Virus record (IMG/VR): IMGVR_UViG_3300044643_000906
Coordinates: 1-61,753 of that record
DNA length: 61,753 nt
Direction: 5' to 3' (one strand)
Source of the DNA: a virus
Taxonomy: Duplodnaviria; Caudoviricetes
Part shown: positions 589-61,753 of the stretch, in pieces
Numbering within the stretch: the stretch's first letter is position 1
Layout of the letters: every line of letters begins with the position of its first letter
Translations under genes and position numbers: made by a program
The notes under the pieces: generated by a model
Told to the model about the DNA's origin: nothing
What the model saw: the letters and a program-made list of their open reading frames with translations, nothing else
The model's database searches: none

Positions 589-660
589 ACGGCTGGTTGT
601 TAGTAGCCGGGCAGGTGCGTTGCCTGCCCGGCCAGACCACATGAGACAAGGAGACTGACG

Positions 661-3504: not shown

Positions 3505-3579
3505 ATGGAACTCATACTGTCTTGTATCTTCTTCGGCGTGGTCTGGGCGGTTCTCATCGGCAACGAAAGCACTAAGTGA
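3505..3579 (+). CDS. Small hydrophobic peptide (MELILSCIFFGVVWAVLIGNESTK)
   Basis: Manual translation. Fills the gap, and its stop overlaps the next start. One predicted transmembrane segment. Confidence 0.45.
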   Translation: MELILSCIFFGVVWAVLIGNESTK

Positions 3580-4364: not shown

Positions 4365-4821
4365 CCTTGACTGTCTGCCACTGCACGCCATCCTCGCGTG
4401 CGATCTGTGCCATCGATCTGTGGTGGAGGACATGCCGTTGCACCACAGATCGTGAGTAGGAGGGGAGCGCCTCAAGGCAGCGGAGTGCATCCTCTCTGCC
4501 TGCCCCCTTCAGCTGGAGGCCGAGCGCCTTGGGTAGGTTAACCCTGCCGTCGTCGCCCTCGCGGCTACGCTTGGCACGCCTCACCTCTTTGAGTAGGGCG
4601 TGCTTGATGGCCGACCCAAAGTAAGTCTGCGGCTGGCTCTTAGTTGGATCGTAGGTCAGGCTCGCCTGCACCACGGCCAGCTGGGCGGTGCTGTCCAGAT
4701 CACAGTGCCGCAGCAGGCGGCGGTAGCTGGGGTGCTGGGCAATGAACGCGGCCACGCACACCGGCACATACTGGAGTGCTGATTCAGCCAACCTCTTCTG
4801 CTCGTCGGTGAGCCGTCTCAT
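4276..4821 (-). CDS. Sigma-70/ECF-like RNA polymerase sigma factor
   Basis: Region 2-like DLDSTAQLAVVQASLTYDPTKS..TY and region 4-like HTH (SMAQIAREDGVQWQTVKARL). ATG at 4821 with an RBS. Confidence 0.75.
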   Translation of the reverse strand: MRRLTDEQKRLAESALQYVPVCVAAFIAQHPSYRRLLRHCDLDSTAQLAVVQASLTYDPTKSQPQTYFGSAIKHALLKEVRRAKRSREGDDGRVNLPKALGLQLKGAGREDALRCLEALPSYSRSVVQRHVLHHRSMAQIAREDGVQWQTVKARLTQAYDQLSACVSESLGSTLDTPDHEP

Positions 4822-5144
4822 TGCAGCGTCCTCACCCACACCTCGCCCCGCCAGCGGCGAGCACAGAGCGTCTCGTGGCACCGCTCGCACACCGGGGTGT
4901 CCGACGGCAGGCCCGAGCTATCAACCTTCACAGACGCAGGCCGGAGGCCACAGTGGGGGCACAGGCTAGTGGGATTTACGCCAGCCTTTGAGACGCTGGA
5001 GGACGGCTTTGCTTTTGCCACCGGGCGTGCCGTCTTTGTAGCTCCCGTCCCCCGCTTTGGAGAGGGGTTCGTAGACGACTTCGCCTTTGGCCGAGTCGAG
5101 CGTTTGCTGCAACGCCCCGATGGCTTTCGCCTGCCTGACTCCAT
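4818..5144 (-). CDS. Possible small Zn-finger protein (CPHC...CERC)
   Basis: Its stop overlaps the sigma ATG and it has two CxxC motifs. The start is uncertain and the ORF overlaps 4966..5298. Confidence 0.4.
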   Translation of the reverse strand: MESGRRKPSGRCSKRSTRPKAKSSTNPSPKRGTGATKTARPVAKAKPSSSVSKAGVNPTSLCPHCGLRPASVKVDSSGLPSDTPVCERCHETLCARRWRGEVWVRTLQ

Positions 5145-14007: not shown

Positions 14008-17000
14008 CTAGAGCCCGAATCGAGCAGCCCTCTTGGCTGCGTCCTTCTTCTGCTTGGCCTCGGCTTGGTTCTTCTTCTGGAGGGCCTGCCGTAGTTCGTA
14101 GTACTGCCTCATTTCAGGCGGCAGCTGCTCGACCTCTTCCTTCGGGATGCTCGTCGTTTCGAACCCCTTCGCCCCCGGGTAGCGCTCGATCTCGGCGTTC
14201 AACTGTCGCAGTGCATCGGCCCTCTGACGCTTCTCATCGATGACCCGCAGCTTGACCGGGCTGAAGGTGTTGAACAGCAGCGTCGAGGCACGGGATGCCA
14301 TAGGTGTGCGTTGGTCGGCCAGCTGGCGACCAGCACTGAGCAGTCGGCCCTGCCCCGGGAAGAGCATGTCGGCACCAGACTGCACCATGGACGGCAGGCG
14401 GAAGTCCTCGTTGCCGGTCCATGCACCGACGATGGTGTCGATCTCGCTGGGCACCTCACCGAGCTTGCGCTTCGTGAACATGTCACGCTGCGTGGCTGCC
14501 TCGATCAGTGTCTTCGGCAGAGGCCCCAGCTGCTGTGCGTAGTTCTGGATCGTGGAGATCATGCTGGCGTTGGGATCGAACTTGCCGCCGGTCTTCGCTA
14601 TCGACACGCGGTTCAACGCGGACAGACCGGGCAGGTCGATGTTGGTGACGGCACGACGCAGGCCGGGGCCGGGCTCTGCCACGTTGCCTAGCCCGAGCGC
14701 TTCGGTCGCAGCACCGAGTTCCTTGGGGAGCAGGAAGCCCGATTGCTCACGCAACGTCTGAGGTACATAGGTGTCGTCGTCTGATTGCTGCGCCTTATCA
14801 GCAACCTTCAGCATCTGGGTGTACGCACCGCCGGGCTTCGACGCCATCTTCTCTGCGGCGTACTTCAGGATGCGGCTCTCATAGGCATAGAAGGGCATCC
14901 ACTTCCTGATCGTCTTCTCGACCTCGGAGAGATTCCCATAGTCAACGTGGGCCGCGATCATGCGGCGCGCCGCTTCCTTCGGGGCGAAACCTTTCTGAAG
15001 CAATGCCATGTAACCACCCATGCGATTGACGCTGTCAGTCCAATCGCCCAGCTTCTCGCCGGTCTTGTACAAGGGGTTCGTGGTGTCTTTGTTTCCGAGC
15101 ACGCCCTTCACGCCGAACGGATTGACGGCCTGCTTGGCAAACTGCCCGTAGGTGCGAGATGGATCGCCAGCGAATGAGCCCGCGATGGACTGCGGCTTGA
15201 ACCCGGGCAGCAGTTCCTTCACTGCTTCGGCCGTGCGGTCGGCGTTAGTGCGATCAATGATTGCACCACCCTTGAGGATGCCTGCCTCTGCGGTGTCAGC
15301 GAGGAACTTGCTAATCAGCTGATCGTCGGACAGCCCAGCCTTAGATGCTGCGGCGTATAGGGGCATCTTCTTGATGTAAGGTAGTACCTTGTCATACTGA
15401 CCATTTAGTAACTTGGCTGCGTGGTATCCGCCCTTCACCGCTTCGGGGCCAGCCTCGATTACATTAGATATAAAGCCGCTAGTAAGATCGCGTGTATACC
15501 TACTCGGCCATGTTAATACACCGGCCTTAAACATCTTCGTGTACTGTTCCACGAGATTGCCGATCTCGCTCACTGCCTTCGGAGCAGCGAACACATCGTG
15601 CATTCGCGTCAGCTGGTTGAGTGTCTCAAGCGGGATCGAGTACTGCGACAGGTCAATCTCGTCGGCGGTGATCCGGCCCTCCGCTCCCTGAAGGCCGGAG
15701 TCGCCCAGTACTTCTGCCATGCGGCTGCGTAGTTCGGCGGCTGCTCCACCGCGAACCTTCGTGCCGTCAGCCAGCACGGTCTTCGGAGACTTCAGTCCAG
15801 CCTTCTGTAGTGCGGAGAGGGCCGAGATGTGCTTGCCGCCTTCCACTTGACCCGGTGTCTGATTGACCAGACGAGAGGCGATGGTGTTGATGAGTTCGTC
15901 TGCGGTGCCGATGGCACGCTTACGTCCGTAGACATATCGGGTGGTGGCTTCCAGCGGGTGGTTGCCGAATACGGGCGAGATGTCTCCGGCGTCTGGCACC
16001 TCAATCTGGTTGAGGAACCGCGCTAGCTGGCGTGCCTTCGCCTTGGAGTATCCCGCCGCGGGAACCGCAGCTGCCTTCTTAGCCGCAGCCGTTGACATTG
16101 CGCCGGATGACCAAGCTGCCGACAAAGCCGCCCGATCCGCAGCCGACTGAGCAGCGGCCTTGCCGACCGGAGAGTCAGCCATCGCCGCATAGTATTTATG
16201 GCTCGGGTCGTTGATGGCTTCGTACAGCTTCTGGGCAACCTCGTCTTCCTTGAATGCATCCCCGAGCCCAACGAAGTCTCTGTCCTGAGAGAACTTCCGC
16301 AGCTGGTCGATTCCGCCGGGCAGCTGGAGAGCCTTCGACCGAGCGAGCATGTCGCCCGTGACGGTGTCGAACAGTGCAGGCTGCCGCGACTTCTTGCCCA
16401 CGACCCGGTCGAGGACGTGCTCTAGCTGGTACGGTCGGTAGCCAGCACCATAGTTGTGCTGCAACTGGTGGGCACGCAGGCCCATCGCCTCGGACTCAGT
16501 GAGAATCTTCGGGGCGAGGTGCCCCCAGCGATCAACGAATGCCCGCACCCCCGGTGTGTTCTCAACGAAGTCGATGTCGGCTGCCGTGGCGGCGTTCTTC
16601 TCAAGGTAGCGGTCGATTGCCTCGCCCGCCTTGGCTGACATAACGTCGTCAATGCCTGTCCTCGATGCGACAGCAGGGTCGATCTTCGCCACCCGCAGCA
16701 TGTCGGCCATCTCTGCCGCCTCACGCCGCCCCTTCGCCTCGCTGATGTCAGCGGTCTGGTTGATTCTGAGTGCTGCCGCCTGAGCCGCGGCGTCTGTCTG
16801 CCCGCCTGCTGCCTTGTTGAACATGGCGTGGGCGTACAGACCGGGCGTAGACCATCGGATGGACTCTCCAAAACGGTCAGCACCACGAGCGAGTGCTTCG
16901 CCAGCAGCAGCACCGAGCGGATCACCGACGATTGAAGCGGAACCGAACCCAAGACCGAACGACTTGCCCAGCGTCTGGTCTTTCACCTGATCGTAGGTCA

Positions 17001-17727
17001 GCTTGTTCTTAGTCAGGTACGCATCCAACTGCTCCTTGAGAGCCTTCTGTGCGTCAGCTGGTGCAGCCTTGAGTGCATCGTCTAGCGTGGTCGTGCGGAG
17101 AGCCTCTCGCTTCCCGACCAGCGGGCGAGTGGTGTGCTCCGCGAAGTCTCGGATGTTCGTCTTGAGTGCGGTGAGCGTCCGTTGTGCCCGGCCCGGCAGC
17201 GTTGGAGTGAGTGCCTCGACCGCGGCGTCATCGAGCCCAGCCCTGAACGGTATCTTGGTGGGGGCGGCAGCCACTGCATCTTCAAGCACCTTGCTCCGCA
17301 GACGCTGGCTGGCGGATACCGTCGCGTTGTCGAGCAGGCCAGCTGCCTTAGCCGCCTTGCCAGCCTTAGTCAGACTAGACCCACCCAGCGTCATGTAGGT
17401 CAGGGGGTCGGTGCCGAGATCGAGGGCCATGCCGGTGACCCACCGGGCAGTGCTGTCGTCCTTCCAGCCAGCTTGATCCAGCAGCTGCTCGCTGGAGACG
17501 CGCTGCTCCGCGTCGAGGGGATTGTTCCACTCGCCGTCTTGGAGATAGTCGATGCCGCTGGCGATCAGTGCTCGCGGGGTGTCGAGCCCCCAGAGAAGAT
17601 TGCTCACTCCCTGACTGCTCTGCTGGCCGAGCTTAGAAAGGAGGCTCCGCTGCACAGGCTCGGGCATAGGCGTGGACGTTCCACGCTGGCGTCGTGCGCC
17701 AAAGCTGGTGCTGGGCCCGAGAGCCAT
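14008..17727 (-). CDS. Large internal virion/ejection-type protein (1239 aa)
   Basis: Size, Ala/Gly-rich helical composition, last gene of the late arm. C-terminal VDYGNLS..EK.IR.WMPFY motif recalled from large polyvalent virion proteins. Confidence 0.7.
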   Translation of the reverse strand: MALGPSTSFGARRQRGTSTPMPEPVQRSLLSKLGQQSSQGVSNLLWGLDTPRALIASGIDYLQDGEWNNPLDAEQRVSSEQLLDQAGWKDDSTARWVTGMALDLGTDPLTYMTLGGSSLTKAGKAAKAAGLLDNATVSASQRLRSKVLEDAVAAAPTKIPFRAGLDDAAVEALTPTLPGRAQRTLTALKTNIRDFAEHTTRPLVGKREALRTTTLDDALKAAPADAQKALKEQLDAYLTKNKLTYDQVKDQTLGKSFGLGFGSASIVGDPLGAAAGEALARGADRFGESIRWSTPGLYAHAMFNKAAGGQTDAAAQAAALRINQTADISEAKGRREAAEMADMLRVAKIDPAVASRTGIDDVMSAKAGEAIDRYLEKNAATAADIDFVENTPGVRAFVDRWGHLAPKILTESEAMGLRAHQLQHNYGAGYRPYQLEHVLDRVVGKKSRQPALFDTVTGDMLARSKALQLPGGIDQLRKFSQDRDFVGLGDAFKEDEVAQKLYEAINDPSHKYYAAMADSPVGKAAAQSAADRAALSAAWSSGAMSTAAAKKAAAVPAAGYSKAKARQLARFLNQIEVPDAGDISPVFGNHPLEATTRYVYGRKRAIGTADELINTIASRLVNQTPGQVEGGKHISALSALQKAGLKSPKTVLADGTKVRGGAAAELRSRMAEVLGDSGLQGAEGRITADEIDLSQYSIPLETLNQLTRMHDVFAAPKAVSEIGNLVEQYTKMFKAGVLTWPSRYTRDLTSGFISNVIEAGPEAVKGGYHAAKLLNGQYDKVLPYIKKMPLYAAASKAGLSDDQLISKFLADTAEAGILKGGAIIDRTNADRTAEAVKELLPGFKPQSIAGSFAGDPSRTYGQFAKQAVNPFGVKGVLGNKDTTNPLYKTGEKLGDWTDSVNRMGGYMALLQKGFAPKEAARRMIAAHVDYGNLSEVEKTIRKWMPFYAYESRILKYAAEKMASKPGGAYTQMLKVADKAQQSDDDTYVPQTLREQSGFLLPKELGAATEALGLGNVAEPGPGLRRAVTNIDLPGLSALNRVSIAKTGGKFDPNASMISTIQNYAQQLGPLPKTLIEAATQRDMFTKRKLGEVPSEIDTIVGAWTGNEDFRLPSMVQSGADMLFPGQGRLLSAGRQLADQRTPMASRASTLLFNTFSPVKLRVIDEKRQRADALRQLNAEIERYPGAKGFETTSIPKEEVEQLPPEMRQYYELRQALQKKNQAEAKQKKDAAKRAARFGL

Positions 17728-17729
17728 TA

Positions 17730-20231
17730 CTACTCCTTAGAGTACGGGTGCTTGCGGCGTCCCTTGCTGGCGTCTTCGGCAGCCTTCTTGCGATCTGCCC
17801 GTGCCTTCTCAACCTCTTCTGGAGTTGGCTGGCTCCACGCACCGCCGGATCGTCGCTGGCCTGCCGGGCGTGGCGGGCCCACTCGGCCAGCAGGTACGGG
17901 CGGTAGTTCTGCCTTGCCAGCAGATGGCGTCACGCCGTTCAGATCGTTGTACACCGCGTCGGCCTGCTCGGGGCTCATGCCAGCGTGCGTGCTGGCGTAG
18001 GCCCGGAACTCCTCCTGAGTCATCGGCGCAGACGGCCTGCCAGTTACCGGATCGACAGTCGGCTTACCGTCATCGCCCAACCTCTTCATCTCGTTGGTAA
18101 GGTGGGATCGCACGCCCGGGTGCATGCTGCCACCAGCGGCGTTCATCAGTGCCCGCCGTCGGAGAGTACTGGTTGCCAGTTCCAACGCCTGATCTTCGGA
18201 GAGGTGCGGGTGATTGCTCCGCAGCTGGGCAGCCATCTCGTTCCGAGAGTTCCCCATAGACAGTGCGGGGTTGGCGAACGCCTCGTCCGCGTAGCCGTTG
18301 GCAGTGGACTGCGGCGTGCCAGCTGCGGCCCTCTCTGCCTGCTTGACTCGCACGGCCTGATCGCCTTCGGCCGCGGTCTGCGTCAGCTGGCGCTCCGCAT
18401 CCTTAACGGCCTTTGCTTCCGCGAGTCGGGCGGCGTGGTCGGCCACCTTCTCGTTGATTACTCGCAGAGCTTCCGCCTCTTGGACGGTTAGCTCGCTAGT
18501 CTTCTCCTTCTCCTCCAGACGCAGCTTGAGGCCCTGCTCGGCAAGCGATAGAGCATAGCCATGCTGGTCTTTAGCCAGCGTCCGGTCGTGCTCCCAGCCT
18601 TCGCGGCGGATTTGCATCTCGTCACCGCGAGCGTCCTTCGCCGCGGCGGTGTCCCTATCCTTCATCTCTCCTTCGTGCAGCTGATCGTCCTCGCGAGCCT
18701 TGTCGGCCTGAGTGTTATCGATTCCACGCAGGTCAACGGTGTTCTTGTGCTTCGCTGCCTCCGCATCGGCAGCGTCCATCGCCGCCATCCGCTCTTGGTA
18801 CATCGGGTTGCCGGTGATCTGGCCCAAGCGACTCAAGCCCTCACGCACAGTGGCGGGGTCGGCTGACCGAGTCTTCTCATCGAGGTGGCCCGTGTATCCC
18901 TTGCGTTCCCAGATCGCTTCGTTGGCACGGGCGTGCTGGGCTTTGCGTGCGGCCTGTCGCTCAAGAAACTCCTTGCTGGCCTGCGGCCTGCCACCCGGAA
19001 ACATTTCCTTCTCGACCTCTTCGGGCGTCTTGCCGGTCGCTTGAGCAAGCTTTGCCACCTGACGGTCGGCGGCGAAGTTAGGGTCGCGTGCGGCCTTCTC
19101 GGCATTACGCCGCTCGATGCGTGCGTTGTACTGCTCGGGCGTGATCTTGTCGGCGGGTGTGCCGTCGCCGTACTTCGCCTGATCGTTGGTGGCGTGCTTG
19201 CGATGGACGCCCGGCATGGTCTTCAGCCACTCAGCCTCACGGCGTGCTTCCTGCGCCTGCTGGGCGTTGCTCATGCCAAGGCCCGGATTGGCTGGCGTTG
19301 CCTTGGGCTTCTCGCTGTAGGCACGGGCCGCTTCCTCTGGGGTCAGGCCGTAGCCAGCTGCACGCTCGGTGAAGTCCTGAAGAGAGATGGGTTGCCACCC
19401 TTGCGGCTTGGCTGCCGGAGCACCACGCAGACCTTCCTGCTTGGCACGCTCCTCAAGTAACTCTCGTCCGGTGAGGTGACCACCCAGCTGGCTGCGAGCG
19501 TATTCGTCCTGACGCCGCTCCATCCCTCGCACTCTTACAACATCCTCTTTCGCTTTCGCTCTCTCAGCGGGCGTGTTCCAAAGGTCGAGGAGTCGTGGGT
19601 CTAGACCTCCGGCCCGTCGGCTCTCGCTCTCGGCCAGACGGCGAGACTCCTCCTCGGTGTACCCAGCGTCGATCAGCTGCTGGGTGCGTTCGGCAAAGGT
19701 GTCGCGGTCTGTCGTGTTTCCGACGACCGTCTCGGCAGGGGGGGCGCTGACCTCCCTTTGTGGCCGCGGAGGTGCGGCAGTGCGGGGCATCGATGGCGGA
19801 ACAGCCACATGCCCGCCGTCACGACGATTCCTTCCGGCCTGTGCGTCGATGTCCGACCACTTGTCGAGCATCTCTCGGCTCGGGAGTGGCCGCTTGGAAC
19901 CGTCGGGGAGGTACATCATCTGTTGCGCGAGCGCGGACACTTGTGGCGCATCGCCCATCCCGGTCTGGCGGGCCGCACGAATCCGGTCGATCATGGCGTT
20001 GGAGTCGGCAGCCTTCGCCGTCAGCTTCGCATCACGGGCCCGCAGCTGGTTCTTGAAGGCGTTCGTGAACTGATCTTCCGACATGGCGGCGGCTTCGCCA
20101 GACAGCCTGTCCGACCGCTGCTCGGGCGTCTCGGGTGCCGCCTGCTGGGCAGGAGGACGAACGCCAGCGGAGTTTACGCCGGGCCTGACGACGTTGGCTT
20201 GCAGTCTTCGGATGCGGTCTTGGATGTCCAT
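17730..20231 (-). CDS. Putative internal virion protein (833 aa)
   Basis: Long A/E/R/Q-rich ORF in the ejection-protein position. Confidence 0.6.
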   Translation of the reverse strand: MDIQDRIRRLQANVVRPGVNSAGVRPPAQQAAPETPEQRSDRLSGEAAAMSEDQFTNAFKNQLRARDAKLTAKAADSNAMIDRIRAARQTGMGDAPQVSALAQQMMYLPDGSKRPLPSREMLDKWSDIDAQAGRNRRDGGHVAVPPSMPRTAAPPRPQREVSAPPAETVVGNTTDRDTFAERTQQLIDAGYTEEESRRLAESESRRAGGLDPRLLDLWNTPAERAKAKEDVVRVRGMERRQDEYARSQLGGHLTGRELLEERAKQEGLRGAPAAKPQGWQPISLQDFTERAAGYGLTPEEAARAYSEKPKATPANPGLGMSNAQQAQEARREAEWLKTMPGVHRKHATNDQAKYGDGTPADKITPEQYNARIERRNAEKAARDPNFAADRQVAKLAQATGKTPEEVEKEMFPGGRPQASKEFLERQAARKAQHARANEAIWERKGYTGHLDEKTRSADPATVREGLSRLGQITGNPMYQERMAAMDAADAEAAKHKNTVDLRGIDNTQADKAREDDQLHEGEMKDRDTAAAKDARGDEMQIRREGWEHDRTLAKDQHGYALSLAEQGLKLRLEEKEKTSELTVQEAEALRVINEKVADHAARLAEAKAVKDAERQLTQTAAEGDQAVRVKQAERAAAGTPQSTANGYADEAFANPALSMGNSRNEMAAQLRSNHPHLSEDQALELATSTLRRRALMNAAGGSMHPGVRSHLTNEMKRLGDDGKPTVDPVTGRPSAPMTQEEFRAYASTHAGMSPEQADAVYNDLNGVTPSAGKAELPPVPAGRVGPPRPAGQRRSGGAWSQPTPEEVEKARADRKKAAEDASKGRRKHPYSKE

Positions 20232-52688: not shown

Positions 52689-52915
52689 TTCATGGACAAC
52701 CGCAGTTCCTTCCGGCGAGCGTCCAATTTTGATCGCTCCGATTGTAGCCGCGACATCCGCTTTTCGTTAGTTTGCACAAGGATGCACGCCATCGCTTGGT
52801 CTAGCCAACAAATGCCGCGATCCAATTGCGCAAGCCGCTTTCGGCAAGACTTTTCAATTGAGAGGCCGCGACTCGAACGCGGGCCTTTGGCGTTCCTGCC
52901 AATGTGCTGCACCAC
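52670..52915 (-). CDS. Hypothetical protein
   Basis: 81 aa, fills the operon gap. Confidence 0.4.
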   Translation of the reverse strand: MVQHIGRNAKGPRSSRGLSIEKSCRKRLAQLDRGICWLDQAMACILVQTNEKRMSRLQSERSKLDARRKELRLSMKCRGSK

Positions 52916-52952
52916 CTACACCACCCCTCATAAATACATTGCTTCTGTCAGT

Positions 52953-54013: not shown

Positions 54014-54056
54014 GCGAGCCTCCTTGGATAGGGTCTTGAGTAGTCACTACCTTCGA

Positions 54057-54092
54057 CCCATTATCCACGCTCGTCAAGTTTTCCAGACTTCA
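54057..54092 (-). promoter_or_regulatory. 36-bp site A: TGAAGTCTGGAAAACTTGACGAGCGTGGATAATGGG
   Basis: 30 of 36 positions identical to site B (59995-60030), in inverted orientation. Upstream of ssb. Confidence 0.7.
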
Positions 54093-54164
54093 TGGTTTCG
54101 CGCGGAGAAACACGATGAAATCGTCCATGGCGTCCTCGTCATCGCAGTCATCGAAGTCCCACAT
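54090..54164 (-). CDS. 24-aa acidic peptide MWDFDDCDDEDAMDDFIVFLRAKP
   Basis: Manual translation. Strong RBS GGGGAGGG 7 nt upstream. Confidence 0.45.
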   Translation of the reverse strand: MWDFDDCDDEDAMDDFIVFLRAKP

Positions 54165-54309: not shown

Positions 54310-54774
54310 CTAGGTGGCTGAAATGGCGTTAGGCACGAAGCTAGGGCCCTTAATCGCGATGCTGGCCTCGACCTCGATCAGGCGGGCTATGCAAGCCTCC
54401 CGGGCGGCTTGAGCTTCTGCCTCGGATCGGAACGTCCCGACGTGAATCTTCTTGCCACGGTAGCCGACCCTGACACGCCAGCGGGGAGTGCCGCCTCGCG
54501 TGAGGTGCTTTGGCTCGATGTACTGCTTGTTGCGTCGGACGTTGAGTGACTGAAGCGTCGGCGTGGCCGGTCGCAGGTTCTCTAGCCTGTTGTCGGACGG
54601 GTCGCGATTGATGTGATCCAGCTGGGCCGGGCACGAGCCATGAGCCAGCCACCAGACGAAGCGGTGCAGGCTCTGCGGCCCTTTGCCGCCGCTGCGCTTC
54701 CAGTAGCCCTTGCTGTCCTGTTGCCATGTGTACTGCGACACGGCCCACTTGAAGTCATGGTCGATCTTGTACAT
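54310..54774 (-). CDS. HNH homing endonuclease with AP2 domain
   Basis: LHRFV...LDHINRD..DNRLENLR, then WRVRV...HVGTF.SEAEA. ATG at 54774 with AGGAGG. Confidence 0.88.
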   Translation of the reverse strand: MYKIDHDFKWAVSQYTWQQDSKGYWKRSGGKGPQSLHRFVWWLAHGSCPAQLDHINRDPSDNRLENLRPATPTLQSLNVRRNKQYIEPKHLTRGGTPRWRVRVGYRGKKIHVGTFRSEAEAQAAREACIARLIEVEASIAIKGPSFVPNAISAT

Positions 54775-55325
54775 AGCTTCCCTCCTGTCGCAAAACGCTA
54801 AGGCGAGAAGGGCGTCCAAAGAAGTCAATATTGTAATAGACCCTCGGAAGGGGGGGTCAGCTTTTTCTGACAGAAATTTCGGGTGACGAATGTAGATGGG
54901 ATGGGATTCACGATGGGGGCAGGGGCCTGTCCCCATCGCCCGCCGCCGCCGCCGGTGCGATGCCTGCGAATGCGGGGGAAACGCCCGTTGCAGCGTAGGT
55001 TCAGGGTGCTGCAAACCCTATAAAACAAGGCATTTTCGTCACCATTCCCCATCCGCCCCCTCTCCTTCTCTACATCGTCTGCCATTCGTCGCCGCGGCAG
55101 GCATCGCCGCAGGCTTCGCCCATCGGCACCACCGCGGCACCATCCACAGCATGCTGCGACGTGGTGCGATGCATGCCATCGGGGGGACATTCAATCGATG
55201 GGCCCAGCATTCCCGGGCTTGTGACATTCGATGCGGATGCCGCGGAGAAATAGTACTGATTCGTGATCGGCTGGTTGATTGTGTCGGGGCACTGTGACCA
55301 CGACACAACACCAGAGGATTGAACC

Positions 55326-55571
55326 ATGGCACACGGCCAACGTGAATCGTTCGTGATCATCTCCACAGACCGAGAGGATGGCAGCATCTCCCGTCGGTAT
55401 GCATCGCTCGCAGACGTGATGCAACACGCTCACGAACAATGGCCCGCCGCGATGCGGGACTACGTTCAAACGTACTTCATCCACAAGCTTCGCAGCATGG
55501 ACGTTGGCGACACGTTCGACGGCCCGAACGCACTGCGGTTTTCAGACCGCATCGTGATGGTTGGCCCGTGA
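55326..55571 (+). CDS. First early gene, hypothetical
   Basis: GAGGA RBS, bounded by motif copies. Confidence 0.7.
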   Translation: MAHGQRESFVIISTDREDGSISRRYASLADVMQHAHEQWPAAMRDYVQTYFIHKLRSMDVGDTFDGPNALRFSDRIVMVGP

Positions 55572-55664
55572 TCGGCTGTTTGATTCTGTCCACCCCACAA
55601 ACCCTATGCGGCCCGCCCGGGAACGTCTCCCGCGGCGGGCCGTGTCATTTCAGGAGGTTCCACC

Positions 55665-56519
55665 ATGTCGATTCTTTCTCTCGTTCTCGATTCCGCCCCG
55701 GTCTACACCGCACCCCGTGTCATCCGCATCGCTCGCAGCGAAGCCACCGTGACGGGTGGCGTCTTGGGTGATCGTGTCGTGACGATCCGCCGGTTGACGG
55801 GTGCCGGTGATCTCAACCCCAAGACTGCGAAGAATGACGTGCAGACGCTGGGGCTGTCGCTCCTGCCGCACAAGTTCGCGGGCATCGGCAATCTGTGCCC
55901 GTTCGCGGTGAACTGCCCGAACGGCTGCCTCGCGAATCAGGGTCAAGGCCCGATGCCGTCTGTGCGGCTACCGCGGGCTGCGAAGTCGATGCTCTGGTAT
56001 CTGGCCCGCGATTGGTTCCTCGACAAGCTTTCCCGCGAGTTGACCACGTTCCGGCGGCGTGTCCCGGTCGATCAGACTGCCGGTGTACGGCTGAACATGT
56101 TCAGCGATATCGCATGGGAGGAGCACGGGATCATCGACGCCTTCCCGGGCATCACGTTCTATGACTATGCGAAGAACCCGCAGCGGCACGGCTGGCTGCG
56201 TCCAAACTACTGGGCAACGTACTCGTTCGACGGCTTGGATCGGCATCTGCCCAACGTCGATGCGGTGATTGCCGCGGGGCACAACGTGTCGGTCGTGTTC
56301 TATGACCCGGCACCGGGTGCGAAGTGCGGCAAGGCTGCCCATCGTCAGCGTCTGCCTGAGTCGTGGCGGGGCATTCCCGTGATCGACGGCGGCAAGAGCG
56401 ATTGGCGTCCCGATGATGCCCGCGGCGTGATCGTGGGCCTGCGTCTGCTCGCTCGCACCTACGCCTCTCGCAACGAGAGCATCGAGAGCGGCTTCGCGGT
56501 GCGTCTGCCCGGAGCCTGA
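55665..56519 (+). CDS. GP88-like protein (Cys cluster, possibly Fe-S)
   Basis: NPK..K, CPFAVNCPNGCL, VRLN..SDI.WE, FYDY.K, VIDG...D.R..D. Confidence 0.75.
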   Translation: MSILSLVLDSAPVYTAPRVIRIARSEATVTGGVLGDRVVTIRRLTGAGDLNPKTAKNDVQTLGLSLLPHKFAGIGNLCPFAVNCPNGCLANQGQGPMPSVRLPRAAKSMLWYLARDWFLDKLSRELTTFRRRVPVDQTAGVRLNMFSDIAWEEHGIIDAFPGITFYDYAKNPQRHGWLRPNYWATYSFDGLDRHLPNVDAVIAAGHNVSVVFYDPAPGAKCGKAAHRQRLPESWRGIPVIDGGKSDWRPDDARGVIVGLRLLARTYASRNESIESGFAVRLPGA

Positions 56520-56604
56520 TCGTCTGGCTGATTTCAACACACCGTCACGACCCCGGCTGGCACGTTGCCTGACCGGGGTCGTGGCATTTCAGGAGGGTTT
56601 CATC

Positions 56605-56994
56605 ATGGTTCGCGTTCGCTTTCACCTTGGGGCCGGGAAGAACTACATGAAGTGGCAGATCACGCACTGGGACGGTCGCAAGACGTACCACGATCCCGCC
56701 ACTACCACGCTCACGATCTATCAGGGGCGGCTGCGGAATGAGCGTGGCACCGCGGAGCGCATCCACGCAGGGGCATCGAAGACGGTCTGCGCTTGGATCG
56801 AAGCGGAGCACGTTGACGTTGACCGCGGCGTGTCGGCTGTCATGGGCGGCACGCAGGCGTCCTACAACCCGCGGGTCGCACCGCACTGGGTCATCAACGG
56901 CTGGAACGCAGACGGCAGACGGTTCGAACTGATGACCACTGCGGGGAGCGGCGTGTTCGTGTCGGCCAAGTCGATGCAGCCGGGGGCGTATTGA
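56605..56994 (+). CDS. Hypothetical protein
   Basis: AGGAGG RBS. VRFHLG.G.NYMKWQI...KTVCAWI...YNPR..P.W. Confidence 0.7.
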   Translation: MVRVRFHLGAGKNYMKWQITHWDGRKTYHDPATTTLTIYQGRLRNERGTAERIHAGASKTVCAWIEAEHVDVDRGVSAVMGGTQASYNPRVAPHWVINGWNADGRRFELMTTAGSGVFVSAKSMQPGAY

Positions 56995-57009
56995 TCGGCT
57001 GATTGATTG

Positions 57010-57549
57010 TGAGGGTACGCGGTCGCCAGCCCGGGCACGTTGCTCGGGCTGGCTGGGGTCATTCACACGCAGGAGCAATGCAATGCACGGTCTGTTTGTT
57101 CAACGTCCCTTCGCCTCGTCTCTGGTGCATGGACGCAAGACGATTGAGACACGCAGCTACAAGCTGCCCGAGCACATGTTCGGCAAGCTGGTCTACATCA
57201 TCGAGACTCCGCGGCGTGAGCACCGCAGGACGGGGGATCGCGGCATGATCGTGGGCGTGGTGCGCTTCGATGGCTGGAAGCTGTACCGCACCCGCGATGA
57301 GTGGCTGCTCGACGCTGATCGGCACCTCGTCACGCCCGACGACCCGCTCTATGGGTGGCGGGATGACAAGCCCAAGTACGGGTGGACTGTGGCTGATCTC
57401 TCCAGCGGGTGGCGTGACAACTGCGAGGTGCTGGAGCCGTCGCAGTATCGGGGCACCGGGTACGGGCGTGTCTGGGTGACCGACTGTGAGCAGGTCGAGT
57501 ACCGACCCACAGTGATACGGGCGTCGAGGTCTTGAGGGTACGCGGTCGC
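57010..57549 (+). repeat. 17-bp direct repeat TGAGGGTACGCGGTCGC (57010-57026 and 57533-57549) flanking the ASCH gene
   Basis: Exact match of the two copies. Confidence 0.9.
57083..57535 (+). CDS. ASCH domain protein
   Basis: L.VQ.PFA..LV.G.KTIETR...IVGVV. Confidence 0.85.
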   Translation: MHGLFVQRPFASSLVHGRKTIETRSYKLPEHMFGKLVYIIETPRREHRRTGDRGMIVGVVRFDGWKLYRTRDEWLLDADRHLVTPDDPLYGWRDDKPKYGWTVADLSSGWRDNCEVLEPSQYRGTGYGRVWVTDCEQVEYRPTVIRASRS

Positions 57550-57625
57550 AGGCTGGGCATGGGCACAGCCTGCATCCCTGCACCTTCGCAGGTTGAGTGA
57601 TGACACGAAGAGGGAGTACTGAATC

Positions 57626-58072
57626 ATGGGCAAGAGCAGCCAGTGGGTGATGGGCAGCGACGTGTGCGAGCAGAAGGCGTGGATTGAGAACGACGAGGGG
57701 CAAGGGGTTGTCAAGCTGGAGCGCATGAACTACGGGCTGGCATCGACGCCCGGCCATGCCTCGGCCACCGACGAGCAGTGGCAGTCGATCATCGACCAGA
57801 TCGCAGCGGTGCCGGAGATGATCGCCGCCCTGCGTAACGTGCAGCACGAACTGACGCACGACAGCGAGGTGCATCACTCGACACGCTGCGACATTGACTC
57901 CCTCCTCAAGCGTGTCGATCCGCCTTGCCCCGTCACGCGGACGGTGAACGTGACCATGCAGGTGGATGTTCGGGTGTTCTCCGATGCACCGGAAGACGTG
58001 GTGCGGGCGATGGCTCTCGCTCAGGTGCGGAAGGGTGATGGGTTCGTGACGGGCGGCAAGGTGATTAGCTGA
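57626..58072 (+). CDS. Hypothetical protein
   Basis: GGGAG RBS, IAAVPEM..AL motif. Confidence 0.65.
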   Translation: MGKSSQWVMGSDVCEQKAWIENDEGQGVVKLERMNYGLASTPGHASATDEQWQSIIDQIAAVPEMIAALRNVQHELTHDSEVHHSTRCDIDSLLKRVDPPCPVTRTVNVTMQVDVRVFSDAPEDVVRAMALAQVRKGDGFVTGGKVIS

Positions 58073-58156
58073 ACGGCTGATTGATTTCACACACAGCAGT
58101 GACCCCGGCAGGCGAGTGACCTGACCGGGGTCGCTGTGTTTCTAGGAGGACGAGCG

Positions 58157-58480
58157 ATGAGGAATCGGAACTACCAAGCGATGCGGCGGCAGCGTGCGAC
58201 CGAGCGTCGAAACTATGAGCGGACGGGCGTGCTGTTCGAACCGCAGCGGTGGTCGATGGTCAACCTGCGGGGCATCGCTCCGTACACCATCGACCGCTGC
58301 GAGGGCACCTACACGGTGGAGTTCGACCGCACTGGCCGGTCGCTGCCCATCTCGCAGCACAGGGAGGTCAAGGTCGTGGCCTATGACCTGCGTCTGCCCG
58401 ATGGCAAGAGTCGCCGGTTCTCACGGCTGATCGATGCGAAGGCGTATGTCCGCATGCTTCAGGAAGGGGGTGCTGCATGA
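58157..58480 (+). CDS. Hypothetical protein
   Basis: AGGAGG RBS. Confidence 0.65.
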   Translation: MRNRNYQAMRRQRATERRNYERTGVLFEPQRWSMVNLRGIAPYTIDRCEGTYTVEFDRTGRSLPISQHREVKVVAYDLRLPDGKSRRFSRLIDAKAYVRMLQEGGAA

Positions 58481-58779
58481 GCACGGGCAACTTCAACCTG
58501 ACATGGGTGCGGCGTGTGATCCCCAACCTCTGCAAGCGTGGAGCACGGGGACGCACGCTGCTCGTCGCCAGCGTGGGCAGGGGTGCGGTCTATCGCGTGA
58601 GGGAGGTGCCATTCCGCGGGTGGTGTGCGGAGCGGCACGAGGAGGGGTCGAACTGCGTGGTCGGATGCAAGGTGTTCGCCAAGCAGGCCGACGCACAGCA
58701 GTGGTGCAGGGAGGATGCGTTCGTCTTCCTGCTGGAGCGGTCGAACTTCTACGCCTTGATGGAAGGGGGTGACGAGTGA
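58477..58779 (+). CDS. Hypothetical protein
   Basis: ATGA-coupled start. Confidence 0.55.
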   Translation: MSTGNFNLTWVRRVIPNLCKRGARGRTLLVASVGRGAVYRVREVPFRGWCAERHEEGSNCVVGCKVFAKQADAQQWCREDAFVFLLERSNFYALMEGGDE

Positions 58780-59609
58780 AGAAGCGGACTGTGTTCGGGT
58801 TGCCTCTCAACCCTGCCCACCTGCTCGACCAGCTGGATGGGCACTCGTTCTGCGTCAGCTACTACCACCGCTCCAAGCTGGGGCGGCAGTTGCAGCAGGC
58901 CATCAGTCTGGTTGGCGACGACCAGCTGCTCATGGTGGACAACGGAGCGTTCAGTGCGTGGCGTTCGGGCAAGGCGCTGGATGAGCAGCATTGGGATGCG
59001 TTCGCCCGATGGGGCATCCGCATCCTCGACGCCTGCCCGCAGGCAGTGCTCGTTATCCCCGACGTGATCGGCGGGTCAGTCGAGCAGAACCACCAGCTGG
59101 CGTGCGAGTTCACCGCTGGTCTGTCGGTGGTCTACGGGCGGGCTGATCTGGTGGATCGATGCATGATGGTCTGGCACATGCACGAACCCATCGATCACCT
59201 GCTTGGCATGATCGAGGGCGGCTACCAGTGGATAGCCGTGGGTAGCAGCGGTGAGTACGCCAAGGTGGGCACGCCTGCATGGCACGCCCGCATCCGCGAG
59301 GCGTTCGCTGCGATGGATGAGTTGTGCTGCGAGGGCAGCGGGTATCGGAGGCCGTGGATGCACCTCATGCGGGGGCAGTCCATGTTCCACCTCTACCCCT
59401 TCGATAGCTGCGACTCATGCAACGTGGCGGTGAACCACAACACATGGCGGCGGGTCAACCCCGGCGAGAACCATGTGGCACGCATGGCGGGTGGCATCAA
59501 GCGGCGGGCGGATGCCAGCTGCAACAGGTTGGATCGGGTCGAGAGTCCAGCTGCGTTGGCTGGGCTCGTCGGTGGGTGGTGGTCTGCACACAGAGGAGGT
59601 GCTGCATGA
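58776..59609 (+). CDS. tRNA-guanine transglycosylase (TGT/DpdA)-fold-like protein
   Basis: VDNGAFS.W, PDVIGG, VWH, A.GSS, H.M.G and FDSCDS resemble TGT-superfamily motifs. Confidence 0.65.
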   Translation: MKKRTVFGLPLNPAHLLDQLDGHSFCVSYYHRSKLGRQLQQAISLVGDDQLLMVDNGAFSAWRSGKALDEQHWDAFARWGIRILDACPQAVLVIPDVIGGSVEQNHQLACEFTAGLSVVYGRADLVDRCMMVWHMHEPIDHLLGMIEGGYQWIAVGSSGEYAKVGTPAWHARIREAFAAMDELCCEGSGYRRPWMHLMRGQSMFHLYPFDSCDSCNVAVNHNTWRRVNPGENHVARMAGGIKRRADASCNRLDRVESPAALAGLVGGWWSAHRGGAA

Positions 59610-59686
59610 CAGAGGCTCAGGTCTGGATCGTCGTCACGATCCTGCGGTTGGTGATCGAGTTGCTCACGCTGGGAGGTGCGACATGA
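59606..59686 (+). CDS. Small hydrophobic peptide
   Basis: GAGGAGG RBS, ATGA-coupled at both ends. Confidence 0.5.
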   Translation: MTEAQVWIVVTILRLVIELLTLGGAT

Positions 59687-59997
59687 AGACGCAGTACTCC
59701 GAATCGTACCGGGTCAGCCCGCGGGTGGTGCTCACCCCGGGCACCCGGTTCCGGGCGAGAGGCGGGCCGATGATCCGCCTCTCGACCGGGGAGACAGTGG
59801 CGATGTCTGCGAAGGGGCCATTCCGTTTCGTCAGGCACTGCAAGCGCGGCACATGCGAGTGGCTCGACGCCCTCGACCGCGATGGAAACTACGCACCGCT
59901 GCATGTGGCGGGGCGACGACGCAAGGTGACGGCAGCGATGGTGCTCAGAAAGTACTCCATCACCGGAACTGTGCGTGGATCACGGGCGAAAGCCTGA
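59683..59997 (+). CDS. Hypothetical basic protein
   Basis: GGAGG RBS, MKTQYS start. Confidence 0.6.
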   Translation: MKTQYSESYRVSPRVVLTPGTRFRARGGPMIRLSTGETVAMSAKGPFRFVRHCKRGTCEWLDALDRDGNYAPLHVAGRRRKVTAAMVLRKYSITGTVRGSRAKA

Positions 59998-60030
59998 AGT
60001 CTGGAAAAGTTGACACGTCTAGATAATGGG
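59995..60030 (+). promoter_or_regulatory. 36-bp site B: TGAAGTCTGGAAAAGTTGACACGTCTAGATAATGGG
   Basis: Inverted partner of site A, upstream of the 60099-AAA-vWA genes. Confidence 0.7.
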
Positions 60031-60098
60031 GAAACGAAGTACTCATTTACGAACGGCTGATTACCTATGGGTGGCATGTCGCTGCCCATCACAAGGAG

Positions 60099-61007
60099 AT
60101 GGCGATGAACATCGAGAAGATTCCCCCGTCCACAAAGGGCGGTCTGGTTTGGCTGACGGCTGGCAAGGTTCGCTGCATCGTGATGCAGCAGGTCTTCACG
60201 AAGATGGGGTGGAAGAAGCTCCTTCCCCGCAGGGAGAAGCGTGCCATCGCACTGCGTTCGGCACTGCTCGACACGCTGCGAGAGCACTACGGCAAGCGGA
60301 AGAAGCTGCGTGTCTTCCCCCTTGACCGGCGTGTCCTCGGGTTCGACGTGCGTGAGCACATCCCGGGTGCGGAGAAGTCGGAGTTGCCCTACCTGCTCAC
60401 GGCCAAGGCCGACGAGCGGCATGCGTGGATCACCCTCGATGGTCTGCCGGGTGACCCGCAGATGAGTCGTGACCTGAGCGACCGCTATCTGGAGAGGGTC
60501 AACTACTACTGCCCCACCACCACGGGTGCGCTGATCAAGAAGGCCATCGAGTCTGAGATGTATGCGTCGTCGGTCAAGGGCAACGGCGGTCTGTGGTTCC
60601 TGCCCGGTGCGTACATCGACCGCTACCGGCAGCTGGCCTCGGAGTTGGAGCGGTCTGCCACCAACCCTGACAGCGAGTGCATCTTCAGCCTCGGTCAGTT
60701 CCAGTTGTGCGACAACCCGGAGGTGGCTCGCGATGCGATGGCGTCGGTGATCGAGGATGCCAAGGCACTGTCGGCTGAGATCAATGCCGACCTGCTCGGC
60801 ACCGGGGCTACGTCAACCGACGATACCAACTCGCTCGGCATGACCAAGCAGGGCGTGCAGTCGAGGAAGGATCGGCTCGCCTCGATGATGGAGAAGGTCA
60901 AGGGCTACGCCGCCATGTTCGGCGTGGGCCTGACCGAGATCGAGCAGCTGCTGGCTGCGACCGACAGTGCCCTCGCTCTCGCGGAGTTGAACGACCTCTC
61001 TGCGTGA
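60099..61007 (+). CDS. Hypothetical helical protein preceding the AAA-vWA pair
   Basis: 302 aa, AAGGAG RBS, GG.WF.P motif and a coiled-coil C-terminus. Confidence 0.75.
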   Translation: MAMNIEKIPPSTKGGLVWLTAGKVRCIVMQQVFTKMGWKKLLPRREKRAIALRSALLDTLREHYGKRKKLRVFPLDRRVLGFDVREHIPGAEKSELPYLLTAKADERHAWITLDGLPGDPQMSRDLSDRYLERVNYYCPTTTGALIKKAIESEMYASSVKGNGGLWFLPGAYIDRYRQLASELERSATNPDSECIFSLGQFQLCDNPEVARDAMASVIEDAKALSAEINADLLGTGATSTDDTNSLGMTKQGVQSRKDRLASMMEKVKGYAAMFGVGLTEIEQLLAATDSALALAELNDLSA

Positions 61008-61098
61008 ACGGCTGATTGATTCTGTGTGCTGCGTCGGGGCAGGCCGGGTGTTCCGGCCTGCCCCTGTTCTTTCACGGTTCTTCAAGGAGATGATTCCA

Positions 61099-61753
61099 AT
61101 GGTTGCTTTCAATGCGTTCGCCAACGTCAACGCTGCGTTCTTCATTGCCTTGCAGGCCCGCGTGCCTGCCCTCGCCCGGGGTCTGCCGGGTACTGGCAAG
61201 TCCACCATCATGGCGGCACTCGCCGCTGCGATGGGCCGTCGGTTCGTCGCACTGATCGGTAGTCAGTGTGCCCCGGAGGATTTCGGTGGCATGCCGGTGC
61301 CCGACCTGAAGGCGAAGCTCTGCCGCCTCATGCCTGCCGAGTGGGTCGAGGCGTTCCTCACCCCGGGTGGTCTGCTCTTCCTCGATGAGATCACCGCCGT
61401 GTCCCCGTCAGTGCGGGCTGCCCTGCTCACGCTCATCACTGAGCGTCACGTCGGCAGCGTTCACCTCGACCACGACACGCTGATGGCAGCGGCCTGCAAC
61501 CCAGAGGAACTGTGCCCTAATGGCACGCCGCTGGAACTGGCGATGAACAATCGGTTTTACCACCACGAGTGGAAGGTGGAGCGGGAGGAGTGGCTCGACG
61601 GCATGGCGACCGGGCAGTGGGCGGCTCCCACTTTCCCGCTCGTGCCGTCCGATTGGGAGTCGATGATCCCCAAGTGGGGCGGCAGGTTCTCTGCCTTCCT
61701 GCGTCGGGCCGACGGGCTGGACAACGTCCCGCCCTCCGATGAGAGCCGGGCCT
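61099..61753 (+). CDS. MoxR-like AAA+ ATPase, 5' part (continues at 1-588; about 371 aa in total)
   Basis: Manual translation MVAFNAFANV..., Walker A GLPGTGKS, Walker B LLFLDE, sensor ACNP, NNRF arginine finger. RBS AAGGAG upstream. In frame with 16..588. Confidence 0.9.
   Translation, partial: MVAFNAFANVNAAFFIALQARVPALARGLPGTGKSTIMAALAAAMGRRFVALIGSQCAPEDFGGMPVPDLKAKLCRLMPAEWVEAFLTPGGLLFLDEITAVSPSVRAALLTLITERHVGSVHLDHDTLMAAACNPEELCPNGTPLELAMNNRFYHHEWKVEREEWLDGMATGQWAAPTFPLVPSDWESMIPKWGGRFSAFLRRADGLDNVPPSDESRA
61627..61753. repeat. Second copy of the 127-bp terminal repeat
   Basis: Identical to 1-127. Confidence 0.97.

Follow-up and report, generated by a model that had tools for sequence, protein, structure and literature searches.

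The window analysed here is the whole of virus record IMGVR_UViG_3300044643_000906, 61,753 bases long, and represents a complete phage genome of 61.6 kb with a terminal overlap of 127 bases and a GC content of about 62%. Plus-strand genes occupy the stretch from 55326 through the record ends up to 4364, and the remainder of the genome is on the minus strand, with capsid, terminase, portal and tail genes followed by a recombination and replication block. Repeated along the plus-strand arm is a 17-nucleotide (nt) motif, found mostly at the stop codons of its genes and ahead of GC-rich hairpins and ribosome sites, and this junction element is the subject of the analysis.

The arm begins with small unknown open reading frames (ORFs) and a GP88-family gene (55665–56519; PF17338, E = 2.7e-29). 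It also contains a weak L5 gp82-like match, below cutoff, and a TGT/DpdA-like protein (phrog_887), which with GP88 are the only accessory genes recognised. Further members are a DUF6744-like gene (60105–61007; PF20529 was found in its homologues), an AAA ATPase gene and a VWA-type partner of the ATPase, and the last part of the arm comprises two unknown genes and a small serine recombinase (3576–4364) whose catalytic residues look intact. Convergent with the recombinase gene is a minus-strand ORF (4276–4890) with a sigma-70 region 4 domain (PF08281), scoring just above its cutoff (26.8 bits, cutoff 25.7). Erf-like and exonuclease VIII-like proteins are also encoded by the phage, as is a weak tyrosine-recombinase-like ORF, below cutoff.

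All eight motif copies claimed in the original prediction, which was made from the letters of the window, are present at the coordinates it gave (Table 1). At up to three mismatches the 17-mer has six matches, all on the plus strand, where 0.19 are expected and none of 100 dinucleotide shuffles reaches six. Under a weight matrix made from the eight copies, these reach 18.0–28.2 bits, and the strongest other site on the two strands of the window has 14.5; with each copy left out of the matrix in turn, the scores are 11.6–26.8 bits, those of the copies at 60050 and 586 being the lowest. The pattern CGGCTGNTTGATT, allowing one mismatch, occurs six times forward and never in reverse over the whole record, and the reversed pattern, serving as a control, is absent. 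The matrix finds no copy in the minus-strand structural arm, in keeping with the claim that the late arm lacks the motif, and a control that collects repeated 9-mers after stop codons recovers the motif on the plus strand and nothing repeated three times on the minus strand. The predicted placement also holds: six copies open with the stop codon of the gene before them, and the remaining two (copies 1 and 6), at operon starts, follow AGTACT(G/C)ATT directly. This promoter-like decamer, AGTACTSATT, is itself enriched in the window (16 matches at up to one mismatch, 2.0 expected). The pattern supports reading the motif as a functional, oriented, arm-specific signal outside the families tested.

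Behind the motif the prediction placed a stem after every copy. Six of the eight leaders fold better than their shuffles (z −3.36 to −3.95, with 0–2 of 200 shuffles equally stable), whereas no such effect is seen for the leaders at the two operon starts (z −0.47 and −1.05). The named stems were recovered, those at 61036–61064 and 606–632 exactly and the rest within a few bases, and a GGAG-type ribosome site and a start codon close every leader, again as described.

Table 1. Motif copies, junction hairpins, promoter-like boxes and direct repeats of the window; z and free energy (dG) refer to the folded leader
Feature	Position	Strand	Details
Motif copy 1, TGATCGGCTGGTTGATT	55264–55280	+	27.2 bits; leader of the arm's first gene, no gene upstream
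Motif copy 2	55569–55585	+	TGA is the stop of ORF 55326–55571
Motif copy 3, TGATCGTCTGGCTGATT	56517–56533	+	TGA is the stop of the GP88-family gene 55665–56519
Motif copy 4	56992–57008	+	TGA is the stop of ORF 56605–56994
Motif copy 5	58070–58086	+	TGA is the stop of ORF 57626–58072
Motif copy 6, CGAACGGCTGATTACCT	60050–60066	+	Weakest copy, 18.0 bits (11.6 when left out of the matrix); between the promoter-like repeat and the DUF6744-like gene 60105–61007
Motif copy 7	61005–61021	+	TGA is the stop of 60105–61007; AAA ATPase gene next
Motif copy 8, TAAACGGCTGGTTGTTA	586–602	+	Last of the arm, 20.8 bits; TAA is the stop of the ATPase gene; gene 661–2202 next
Hairpin after copy 2, then TGTCATTTCAGGAGG	55606–55645	+	Leader dG −37.7, z −3.88
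Hairpin after copy 3, GACCCCGG..CCGGGGTC family with bulged A, then CATTTCAGGAGG	56544–56585	+	z −3.48
Hairpin after copy 4	57025–57053	+	z −3.60
Hairpin after copy 5, same family as 56544–56585	58096–58137	+	z −3.95; terminator-like in a simple scan
Hairpin after copy 7, T-rich tail behind	61036–61064	+	z −3.36; terminator-like in a simple scan
Hairpin after copy 8, apex GCGTT, no T-run behind	606–632	+	z −3.58
AGTACTGATT box	55252–55261	+	Directly upstream of copy 1
Promoter-like repeat GAAGTCTGGAAAAGTTGAC..GATAATGGG..AGTACTCATT	59983–60047	+	Directly upstream of copy 6
Direct repeat TGAGGGTACGCGGTCGC, copy one	57010–57026	+	Directly behind motif copy 4
Direct repeat TGAGGGTACGCGGTCGC, copy two	57533–57549	+	Begins with the stop codon of gene 57083–57535

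A motif scan in related phages had been put forward as a check, and six related records prove to share the layout, each with a motif variant of its own. The DUF6744-like protein has 26 metagenome homologues, whose profile led to four viral contigs of 57–63 kb (G001–G004) and six short metagenome contigs; compared with the window (G000), G001–G004 are 37–44% identical in this protein and 82–83% identical in the capsid. A capsid search added one complete genome (G030) and one fragment (G032). The curated set comprises 57 motif sites in these seven genomes, all on the gene strand. The motif reads CGGCTGnTTGATT in G000, CGGCTAGTAGTTC in G001, CGGCTTGTAGTTC in G002, CGGCTGA(T/C)(T/A)GTT(T/C) in G003, TGGCTGATTG(A/T)TT in G004, CGTTCGGCAGGTGnATTGTG in G030, where GGTTGAGGCT is further conserved upstream, and CGCTGCGGAGTCTGGTTTGT in G032. 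Common to all lineages is the skeleton GG-N4-T-N-G-N-TT. Genome-specific matrices recover the curated copies, with 0–4 other sites of at least 14 bits per genome against 0.15–1.05 in shuffles.

The tie to gene ends is general in this set. At 48 of the 57 sites the stop codon of an open frame (at least 45 codons) lies within −15 to +14 of the motif start, and it is found at motif position 1 (TGA), 9 (TGA) or 12 (TAG), or 3–14 nt upstream. Junctions that lack the motif are almost all overlapping start/stop pairs; the exceptions are G000 57535–57626 and G002 18862–18938, the latter retaining the leader and hairpin but just a half-motif, which lies within the coding end.

At 41 of the 57 sites a hairpin at least as stable as −20 kcal/mol stands behind the motif, and in every one of the 41 the order is motif, hairpin, ribosome site. 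Stems differ from junction to junction; despite this, the apex CGT (GCGTT or ACGTT, forming a CGU triloop closed by G.U or A-U) is present in 26 of the 41, among them those behind motif copies 2, 3, 4 and 8 of the window and others in G001–G004, G030 and G032. Conservation of the GACCCCGG..A..CCGGGGTC hairpin reaches about 90% across genomes in which the neighbouring proteins are less than 50% identical, and the hairpin behind copy 5 has near-identical copies at the corresponding junction of G001–G004. In G030 and G032 the hairpin begins 0–6 nt behind the motif, and a scan of the G032 arm gives 10 terminator-like sites against 3.7 ± 2.0 in shuffles, 6–7 of them at its 10 junctions.

The first motif copy stands in the leader of gene 1 in G000–G004 and in the partial record G022, with the first strong hairpin after gene 1; by the curated site lists, the first copy precedes gene 1 in G030 and G032 too. 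In G004 the motif and a tandem pair of T-run hairpins precede the conserved DUF6744–ATPase–VWA genes, and no promoter is recognisable in the interval. At the corresponding junction of G001–G003 the succession is the stop codon of a small ORF, the motif, a strong hairpin, a TTGAC..AGTACT box and the DUF6744-like gene.

The motif changes faster than its surroundings. G002 and G003 are 80–97% identical in DNA, and at five orthologous junctions of this pair 17 of 85 motif positions are changed, compared with 9 of 452 positions in the homologous flanks (Fisher p = 5e-9); a gapped comparison gives 14 changes in about 86 motif positions. One change, CTTGTAG against CTGATAG, recurs at several junctions in surroundings that are otherwise identical; an intragenic copy (G002 25831, G003 10823) is unswitched. 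Such fast, concerted change within near-identical flanks points to a phage-specified reader. No antisense partner of the motif was found in the same genomes at up to two mismatches, apart from chance-level matches to the short G030 core, and since no motif-complementary sequence is present the reader is more likely to be a protein. The sigma-like protein was considered for this role and set aside, as no alignment column separates G001 and G002 from G000, G003 and G004. The first gene of the arm belongs to one of two unrelated families that partly track motif type: its products in G001 and G002 are 63% identical and these genomes share the TAG/TTG-TAGTTC motif type, and the G003 product is divergent (n = 5).

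From these patterns we take the motif to be a real, selected, oriented, arm-specific and lineage-specific junction signal of a new phage family. Its mechanism lies among three ordinary classes of transcription control, between which the evidence is divided.

The arrangement of the junctions is consistent with the antitermination or RNA-processing role suggested in the original prediction. Because the order of motif and then hairpin is fixed and never reversed, which favours a signal acting after initiation, we place an antitermination-type action first, tentatively: the 17-mer would be the first module of a reusable linker. This linker, which joins the accessory plus-arm genes in a family of lake phages of about 60 kb, opens with the stop codon and motif and runs through a C/A-rich spacer and, in most cases, a GC hairpin trailed by a short T-run to a strong ribosome site and the start codon. 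The motif would be read once transcription is under way, probably on the nascent RNA, by a phage-specified factor that lets RNA polymerase pass the terminator-like hairpin ahead, as at a nut or put site, and the cassettes beyond the first gene would need this factor for their expression. As a by-product, the 70–100 nt conserved junction would offer a homology joint for whole-gene exchange.

Several observations weigh against antitermination. Sixteen of the 57 sites have no hairpin, just a C/A-rich unstructured leader of 29–40 nt, in G000 anything from 3 to 22 nt separates the two elements where both are present, and some hairpins have no motif, so that the two modules are separable. Many hairpins of G000–G004 are trailed by just 3–4 T, the one before the VWA gene by none, and a simple terminator scan passes just two of the six in G000. 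G001 has mixed motif variants, including one G000-type copy between two genes shared with G000 (42% and 63% identity), so the requirement for a motif type is not absolute and a strict specificity switch is weakened. A perfect consensus copy lies within a G001 ORF, 150 nt ahead of the next gene, where a DNA-level site fits better. Among about 60 ORFs scanned there is no Pfam or PHROG match to an antiterminator, a NusG-like or an RNA-binding protein, and the first-gene products, likewise without a Pfam or PHROG match, are acidic in six of the seven genomes (pI 4.4–6.0), not N-like. The case for action at the RNA level is drawn from anatomy only.

A lambda-type nut site pairs a boxA with a boxB hairpin of conserved sequence at fixed spacing, and occupies the leader and the region right behind the first gene, ahead of terminators. 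The window element is similar in that a linear motif and a hairpin occur in the leader and after the first gene, before terminators, and in that its reader would be phage-specific. It differs in having many copies per operon, with variable stems and spacing and only the apex CGT recurring, and in the lack of a small, basic, arginine-rich N-like first gene. The kinship with boxA that the prediction had entertained is not supported by the rRNA leaders of a possible host order: a boxA matrix from the 16S leaders of 16 Phycisphaerales genomes, 15 of which have the block TCTTTGA(C/A)AAGTGAACAG, ranks no motif copy in its top eight in any of the seven phage genomes. A resemblance seen by eye (GCT..TTGA) is lost in the same matrix test. 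The choice of Phycisphaerales follows a hint from one binned contig of a metagenome-assembled genome (MAG; L193, with a capsid relative of 87% identity), and this group may not be the host; the other capsid matches come from a MAG contig titled Crocinitomicaceae, which has two capsid copies, and from one bacterium contig.

The motif could instead be a phage-specific promoter, an explanation we regard as possible, if doubtful, in which host RNA polymerase is redirected by a phage factor such as the ECF-like sigma protein of ORF 4276–4890, encoded in all five full genomes (G000–G004) and conserved at 50–55% identity in G001–G004. Each non-overlapping gene would then have its own start, and the hairpin would end upstream read-through or stabilise the 5′ end. 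A promoter would agree with a contiguous conserved block of 13–22 nt, the 3′ half of which is AT-richer than the genome, with variants owned by each lineage, like those of phage RNA polymerase or sigma promoters, and with the occurrence of the motif at nearly every junction that lacks translational coupling. The leaders of the hairpin-less sites suit a 5′ untranslated region, and the intragenic G001 copy, ahead of the next gene, also agrees with a promoter. The scarcity of other promoters, which again counts against antitermination, means that the motif could itself be the promoter: over its whole genome G000 has no strict and 14 relaxed sigma-70-like promoters against 64.6 in mononucleotide shuffles, a lenient null by which the depletion is overstated.

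The arrangement at the junctions argues the other way. A motif followed by a terminator-like hairpin, at 41 of 41 sites, is the inverse of the usual order of terminator and then promoter, and the spacer of 3–22 nt in G000–G004 would put the entire hairpin into the transcript. Another promoter-like box is present behind the motif and terminator in G001–G003, before the DUF6744-like gene, two T-run hairpins follow the motif in G004, and two G000 copies sit directly behind such a box. Motif type is not tracked by any residue of the sigma-like protein, the motif has no bipartite −35/−10 layout, and no single-subunit RNA polymerase was detected. Established promoter classes also fail to account for the sites. 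For sigma-70 there is one promoter-like match in 54800–61753 against 1.1 expected, and none in the G032 arm. The sigma-54 consensus has GG at −24 and GC at −12, ten bases apart; the GG is present, but none of the 57 sites has GC or TTGC at −12. T7 class II promoters and RNase III sites form a contiguous element of about 17–23 nt between early genes, and the motif is similarly contiguous, overlaps gene ends and precedes a junction hairpin and ribosome site; T7 promoters, however, are not limited to an accessory arm. No PHROG or Pfam match to a T7-like RNA polymerase was found among the large ORFs, including proteins of 833, 1239 and 1280 amino acids, although a divergent one could escape.

The closest known system is the promoter-early stem-loop (PeSL) cassette of T4-type phages. 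Published accounts describe PeSLs as a conserved transcription signal with a terminating or attenuating stem-loop and a ribosome site, a combination that recurs among small accessory genes where relatives differ by insertion, deletion and replacement (PMC2839356, PMC4122927). Their signal is described as a strong sigma-70-type −35/−10 promoter with the stem-loop between or over the boxes (PMC2839356), and homologous exchange at the conserved linkers has been proposed (PMC4122927, PMC2839356). The window likewise has a stem-loop terminator and ribosome site between small accessory genes, at recombination breakpoints. Unlike PeSLs, its cassettes contain no detectable sigma-70-type −35/−10 promoter, and the element is one contiguous motif at the stop codon, with the hairpin downstream and a sequence that varies from phage to phage. 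In G030 and G032, where motif and hairpin nearly adjoin, a start could fall in the 5′ arm of the hairpin and so escape termination as in PeSLs, which would suit a promoter.

Action on DNA could also take the form of a stoperator-like roadblock, in which a phage DNA-binding protein, either an immunity repressor or an early shut-off factor, blocks the elongating polymerase along the arm as the Cluster A repressor does; we consider this unlikely. Cluster A stoperators are described as asymmetric, transcription-oriented, intergenic sites of about 13 bp, many per genome, with a consensus particular to each phage that diverges together with its reader, and they number 20–30 over both arms of temperate phages with a known repressor (PMC6550527, PMC9283540). 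The motif sites are also asymmetric and transcription-oriented, lie in short intergenic gaps at stop codons, are many per genome and have a genome-specific consensus, and their rapid divergence between close relatives is like that of immunity specificity. GP88 and the weak L5 gp82-like gene of the arm belong to families of Cluster A right arms, and the genome has a serine recombinase in addition to the weak tyrosine-recombinase-like ORF. Here, however, the sites number 5–10, are limited to one arm and have a fixed partner hairpin downstream, and a roadblock leaves their place ahead of hairpins unexplained. No repressor-like or helix–turn–helix (HTH) protein and no polymerase family was recognised in the Pfam and PHROG scans of the ORFs, the missing recognisable repressor being weak evidence. 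The tyrosine-recombinase-like ORF, its match being below cutoff, is absent from G001 and G004.

Nor was any sign of lysogeny or an integrated relative found. The DUF6744-like protein has no relatives in 185,579 species genomes, and the four matches of a search with the major capsid protein (MCP) all lie on MAG contigs (11.7–97.7 kb), where no host flanks were noticed, though these were not inspected. Two of these loci (L194 and L196) are related capsid genes, 66% identical, about 65 kb apart on one 97.7-kb contig of the Crocinitomicaceae-titled MAG; the contig has the look of phage sequence assembled as a concatemer and placed in the bin of a low-GC host.

Cleavage of the RNA would place the motif at the head of a common 5′ leader. 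A host RNase or a phage endoribonuclease would cut the polycistronic RNA at or just after the motif, leaving each cistron with a protective 5′ hairpin, much as T7 RNase III sites do, and we rate this as quite improbable. The position right behind a stop codon, and the succession of an AU-richer single-stranded stretch, a stable hairpin and a ribosome site, would suit such processing. The motifs at the G000 operon starts begin a few bases past the AGTACT box, a possible −10, so that primary and processed RNAs would share a 5′ end. A host nuclease does not explain the phage-specific switch, however, the hairpin-less sites do not fit, and no phage nuclease candidate is linked to the motif. Set beside the known systems, the window element works like a PeSL without the sigma-70 promoter, with stoperator-like sites and a nut-like layout that fails the boxA test.

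The junctions are also where gene content changes. The prediction had proposed that they serve as homology joints for swapping accessory genes, and gene-content breakpoints in relatives and in lake populations do fall in the motif, hairpin and ribosome-site junctions; they are scattered there, however, and a swap at a fixed nucleotide, as at an attC site, is not borne out. Contigs of four lake DNA runs were placed on 55000–61753 at a likeness of at least 80%, joints below a likeness of 95 being ones that may stem from other organisms. From 57013 onwards the 20-kb X21 contig shares about 99% identity with the window (57013–58473 with 13 differences, and a neighbouring contig covers 58540–61753 with two), and this long near-identical flank argues that it is a true relative. 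In it, 55625–56529, with the GP88 gene, is replaced by 1032 other letters and 56597–57012 by about 880 (by subtraction of record positions), and the 67-nt island between them (56530–56596), comprising the motif end, hairpin and ribosome site, is kept with one difference. An X18 contig has both of these joints, and X24 joints connect 55652 to 56516, 58442 to 58777 and 58410 to 59604. By position, the breakpoint at 55624 falls in a hairpin, those at 55652 and 56596 at a ribosome site, and those at 56516, 56530 and 56990 at a motif. Between G002 and G003, a two-gene insertion is bounded by a 20-nt repeat at gene ends adjoining the motif. In the window, the 17-nt direct repeat pair brackets one leader-plus-gene unit, that of gene 57083–57535.

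There is good evidence in these comparisons that the junctions are places of gene swapping, although breakpoints between genes are partly expected, because whole-gene exchange must break there. Given the scattered breakpoints and the Erf-like and exonuclease VIII-like proteins, homologous exchange at the conserved linkers is the simplest account.

It is highly improbable that the motif is a site-specific recombination core, the crossover for the arm-end serine recombinase acting on integron-like excisable cassettes. The sites are direct repeats flanking single genes, whole genes are replaced between neighbouring junctions, and an intact-looking small serine recombinase is kept at the arm end in all five full genomes, as such a system would have them. 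As read from the site sequences, however, the motif has no dyad symmetry, and the scatter of breakpoints over the junction, with some in the 20-nt coding repeat, fits homologous exchange better. Integron attC sites are imperfect inverted repeats with pairing ends and a fixed crossover, next to an IntI tyrosine recombinase. The attC model was rejected: the motif does not pair with the sequence behind the hairpin, there is no single breakpoint, and the recombinase is of the small serine type. In its fullest form the idea would make the arm a phage-borne integron-like array, in which the serine recombinase moves single accessory genes, each with its own leader, terminator and ribosome site, and the motif variant sets the specificity of recombination, and of expression, so as to keep exchange within a lineage; we give this very little credence.

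The element belongs to what appears to be a previously undescribed and abundant lake phage family, and offers a natural example of plug-and-play gene linkers in which the recognition motif shifts in concert between near-identical genomes. Should it prove to be a signal for antitermination or a promoter, read by a phage factor that co-evolves with it, it would account for accessory genes being insulated and yet shuffled, and would provide compact orthogonal expression-control parts in a host group nearly without genetic tools. Should it turn out to be no more than a promoter or a roadblock site, the PeSL and stoperator ideas would be extended to a new phage lineage, a useful but unsurprising outcome.

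The DUF6744-like gene is present in one of 39 records with a related capsid gene, and an ATPase profile, used to find further arms, gave just the five known relatives and one 8-kb fragment. In G035, the most distant complete relative (capsid 63% identical), no 9-mer is repeated after stop codons. Over viral contigs the exact G000 pattern matched 106 stretches, and among the 80 loci listed each is a single match, with no array. Against the phage GenBank collection the sole match was a 93-nt stretch of GP88, shared with 26 Mycobacterium phage records, and one tail-fibre-like protein had no matches among deposited phages; by these searches, the window phage appears to have no close relative among deposited phages. 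Searches of an open-access library of papers yielded no description of the motif element or of the phage family. At least half of the sampled words of the stretch are present in each of 24 DNA runs from lakes or fresh water, which belong to 24 studies and include 8 that may be the source sample. Over the whole window an Rfam scan gave no match at gathering score, and ARAGORN reported a single doubtful tRNA (52858–52930).

The promoter-like repeat upstream of copy 6 has an inverted second copy at about 54050–54104 on the minus strand, ahead of an SSB-like gene. The two form an inverted pair of about 55 nt, GAAGTCTGGAAAAnTTGAC..GATAATGGG..AGT(A/G), each member right behind a stop codon, the 59983–60047 copy preceding the DUF6744-like gene; TTGAC and GATAAT in the pair are spaced too closely for one sigma-70 promoter. 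Two lake contigs run on from 60014 with the sequence of the other promoter-like copy, as loose ends. About 300 nt upstream of the arm's first gene, in the divergent intergenic region, the block ..TTTTGnnnGTCAACTCG..GTAT(G/A)TATGGGGCC is conserved in G001–G004, with a GC-rich stretch behind it, and may be a promoter or a structured leader; in the window just ATGGGCC of this block is recognisable, near 55205.

The gene divergent from the arm encodes an HNH protein in each genome compared, of unlike families (window 54310–55014, G001 56573–57112 and G002 16700–17212, all on the minus strand). The window protein also has an AP2-like domain, and those of G001–G003 a recombinase-type DNA-binding region; these genes at the arm boundary look like homing endonucleases. 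Within the arm, a hydrophobic ORF of 26 codons (59606–59686, plus strand) has an ATGA overlap with both neighbours, and its C-terminus resembles that of the small ORFs of G001–G003 that end at the motif ahead of the strong terminator.

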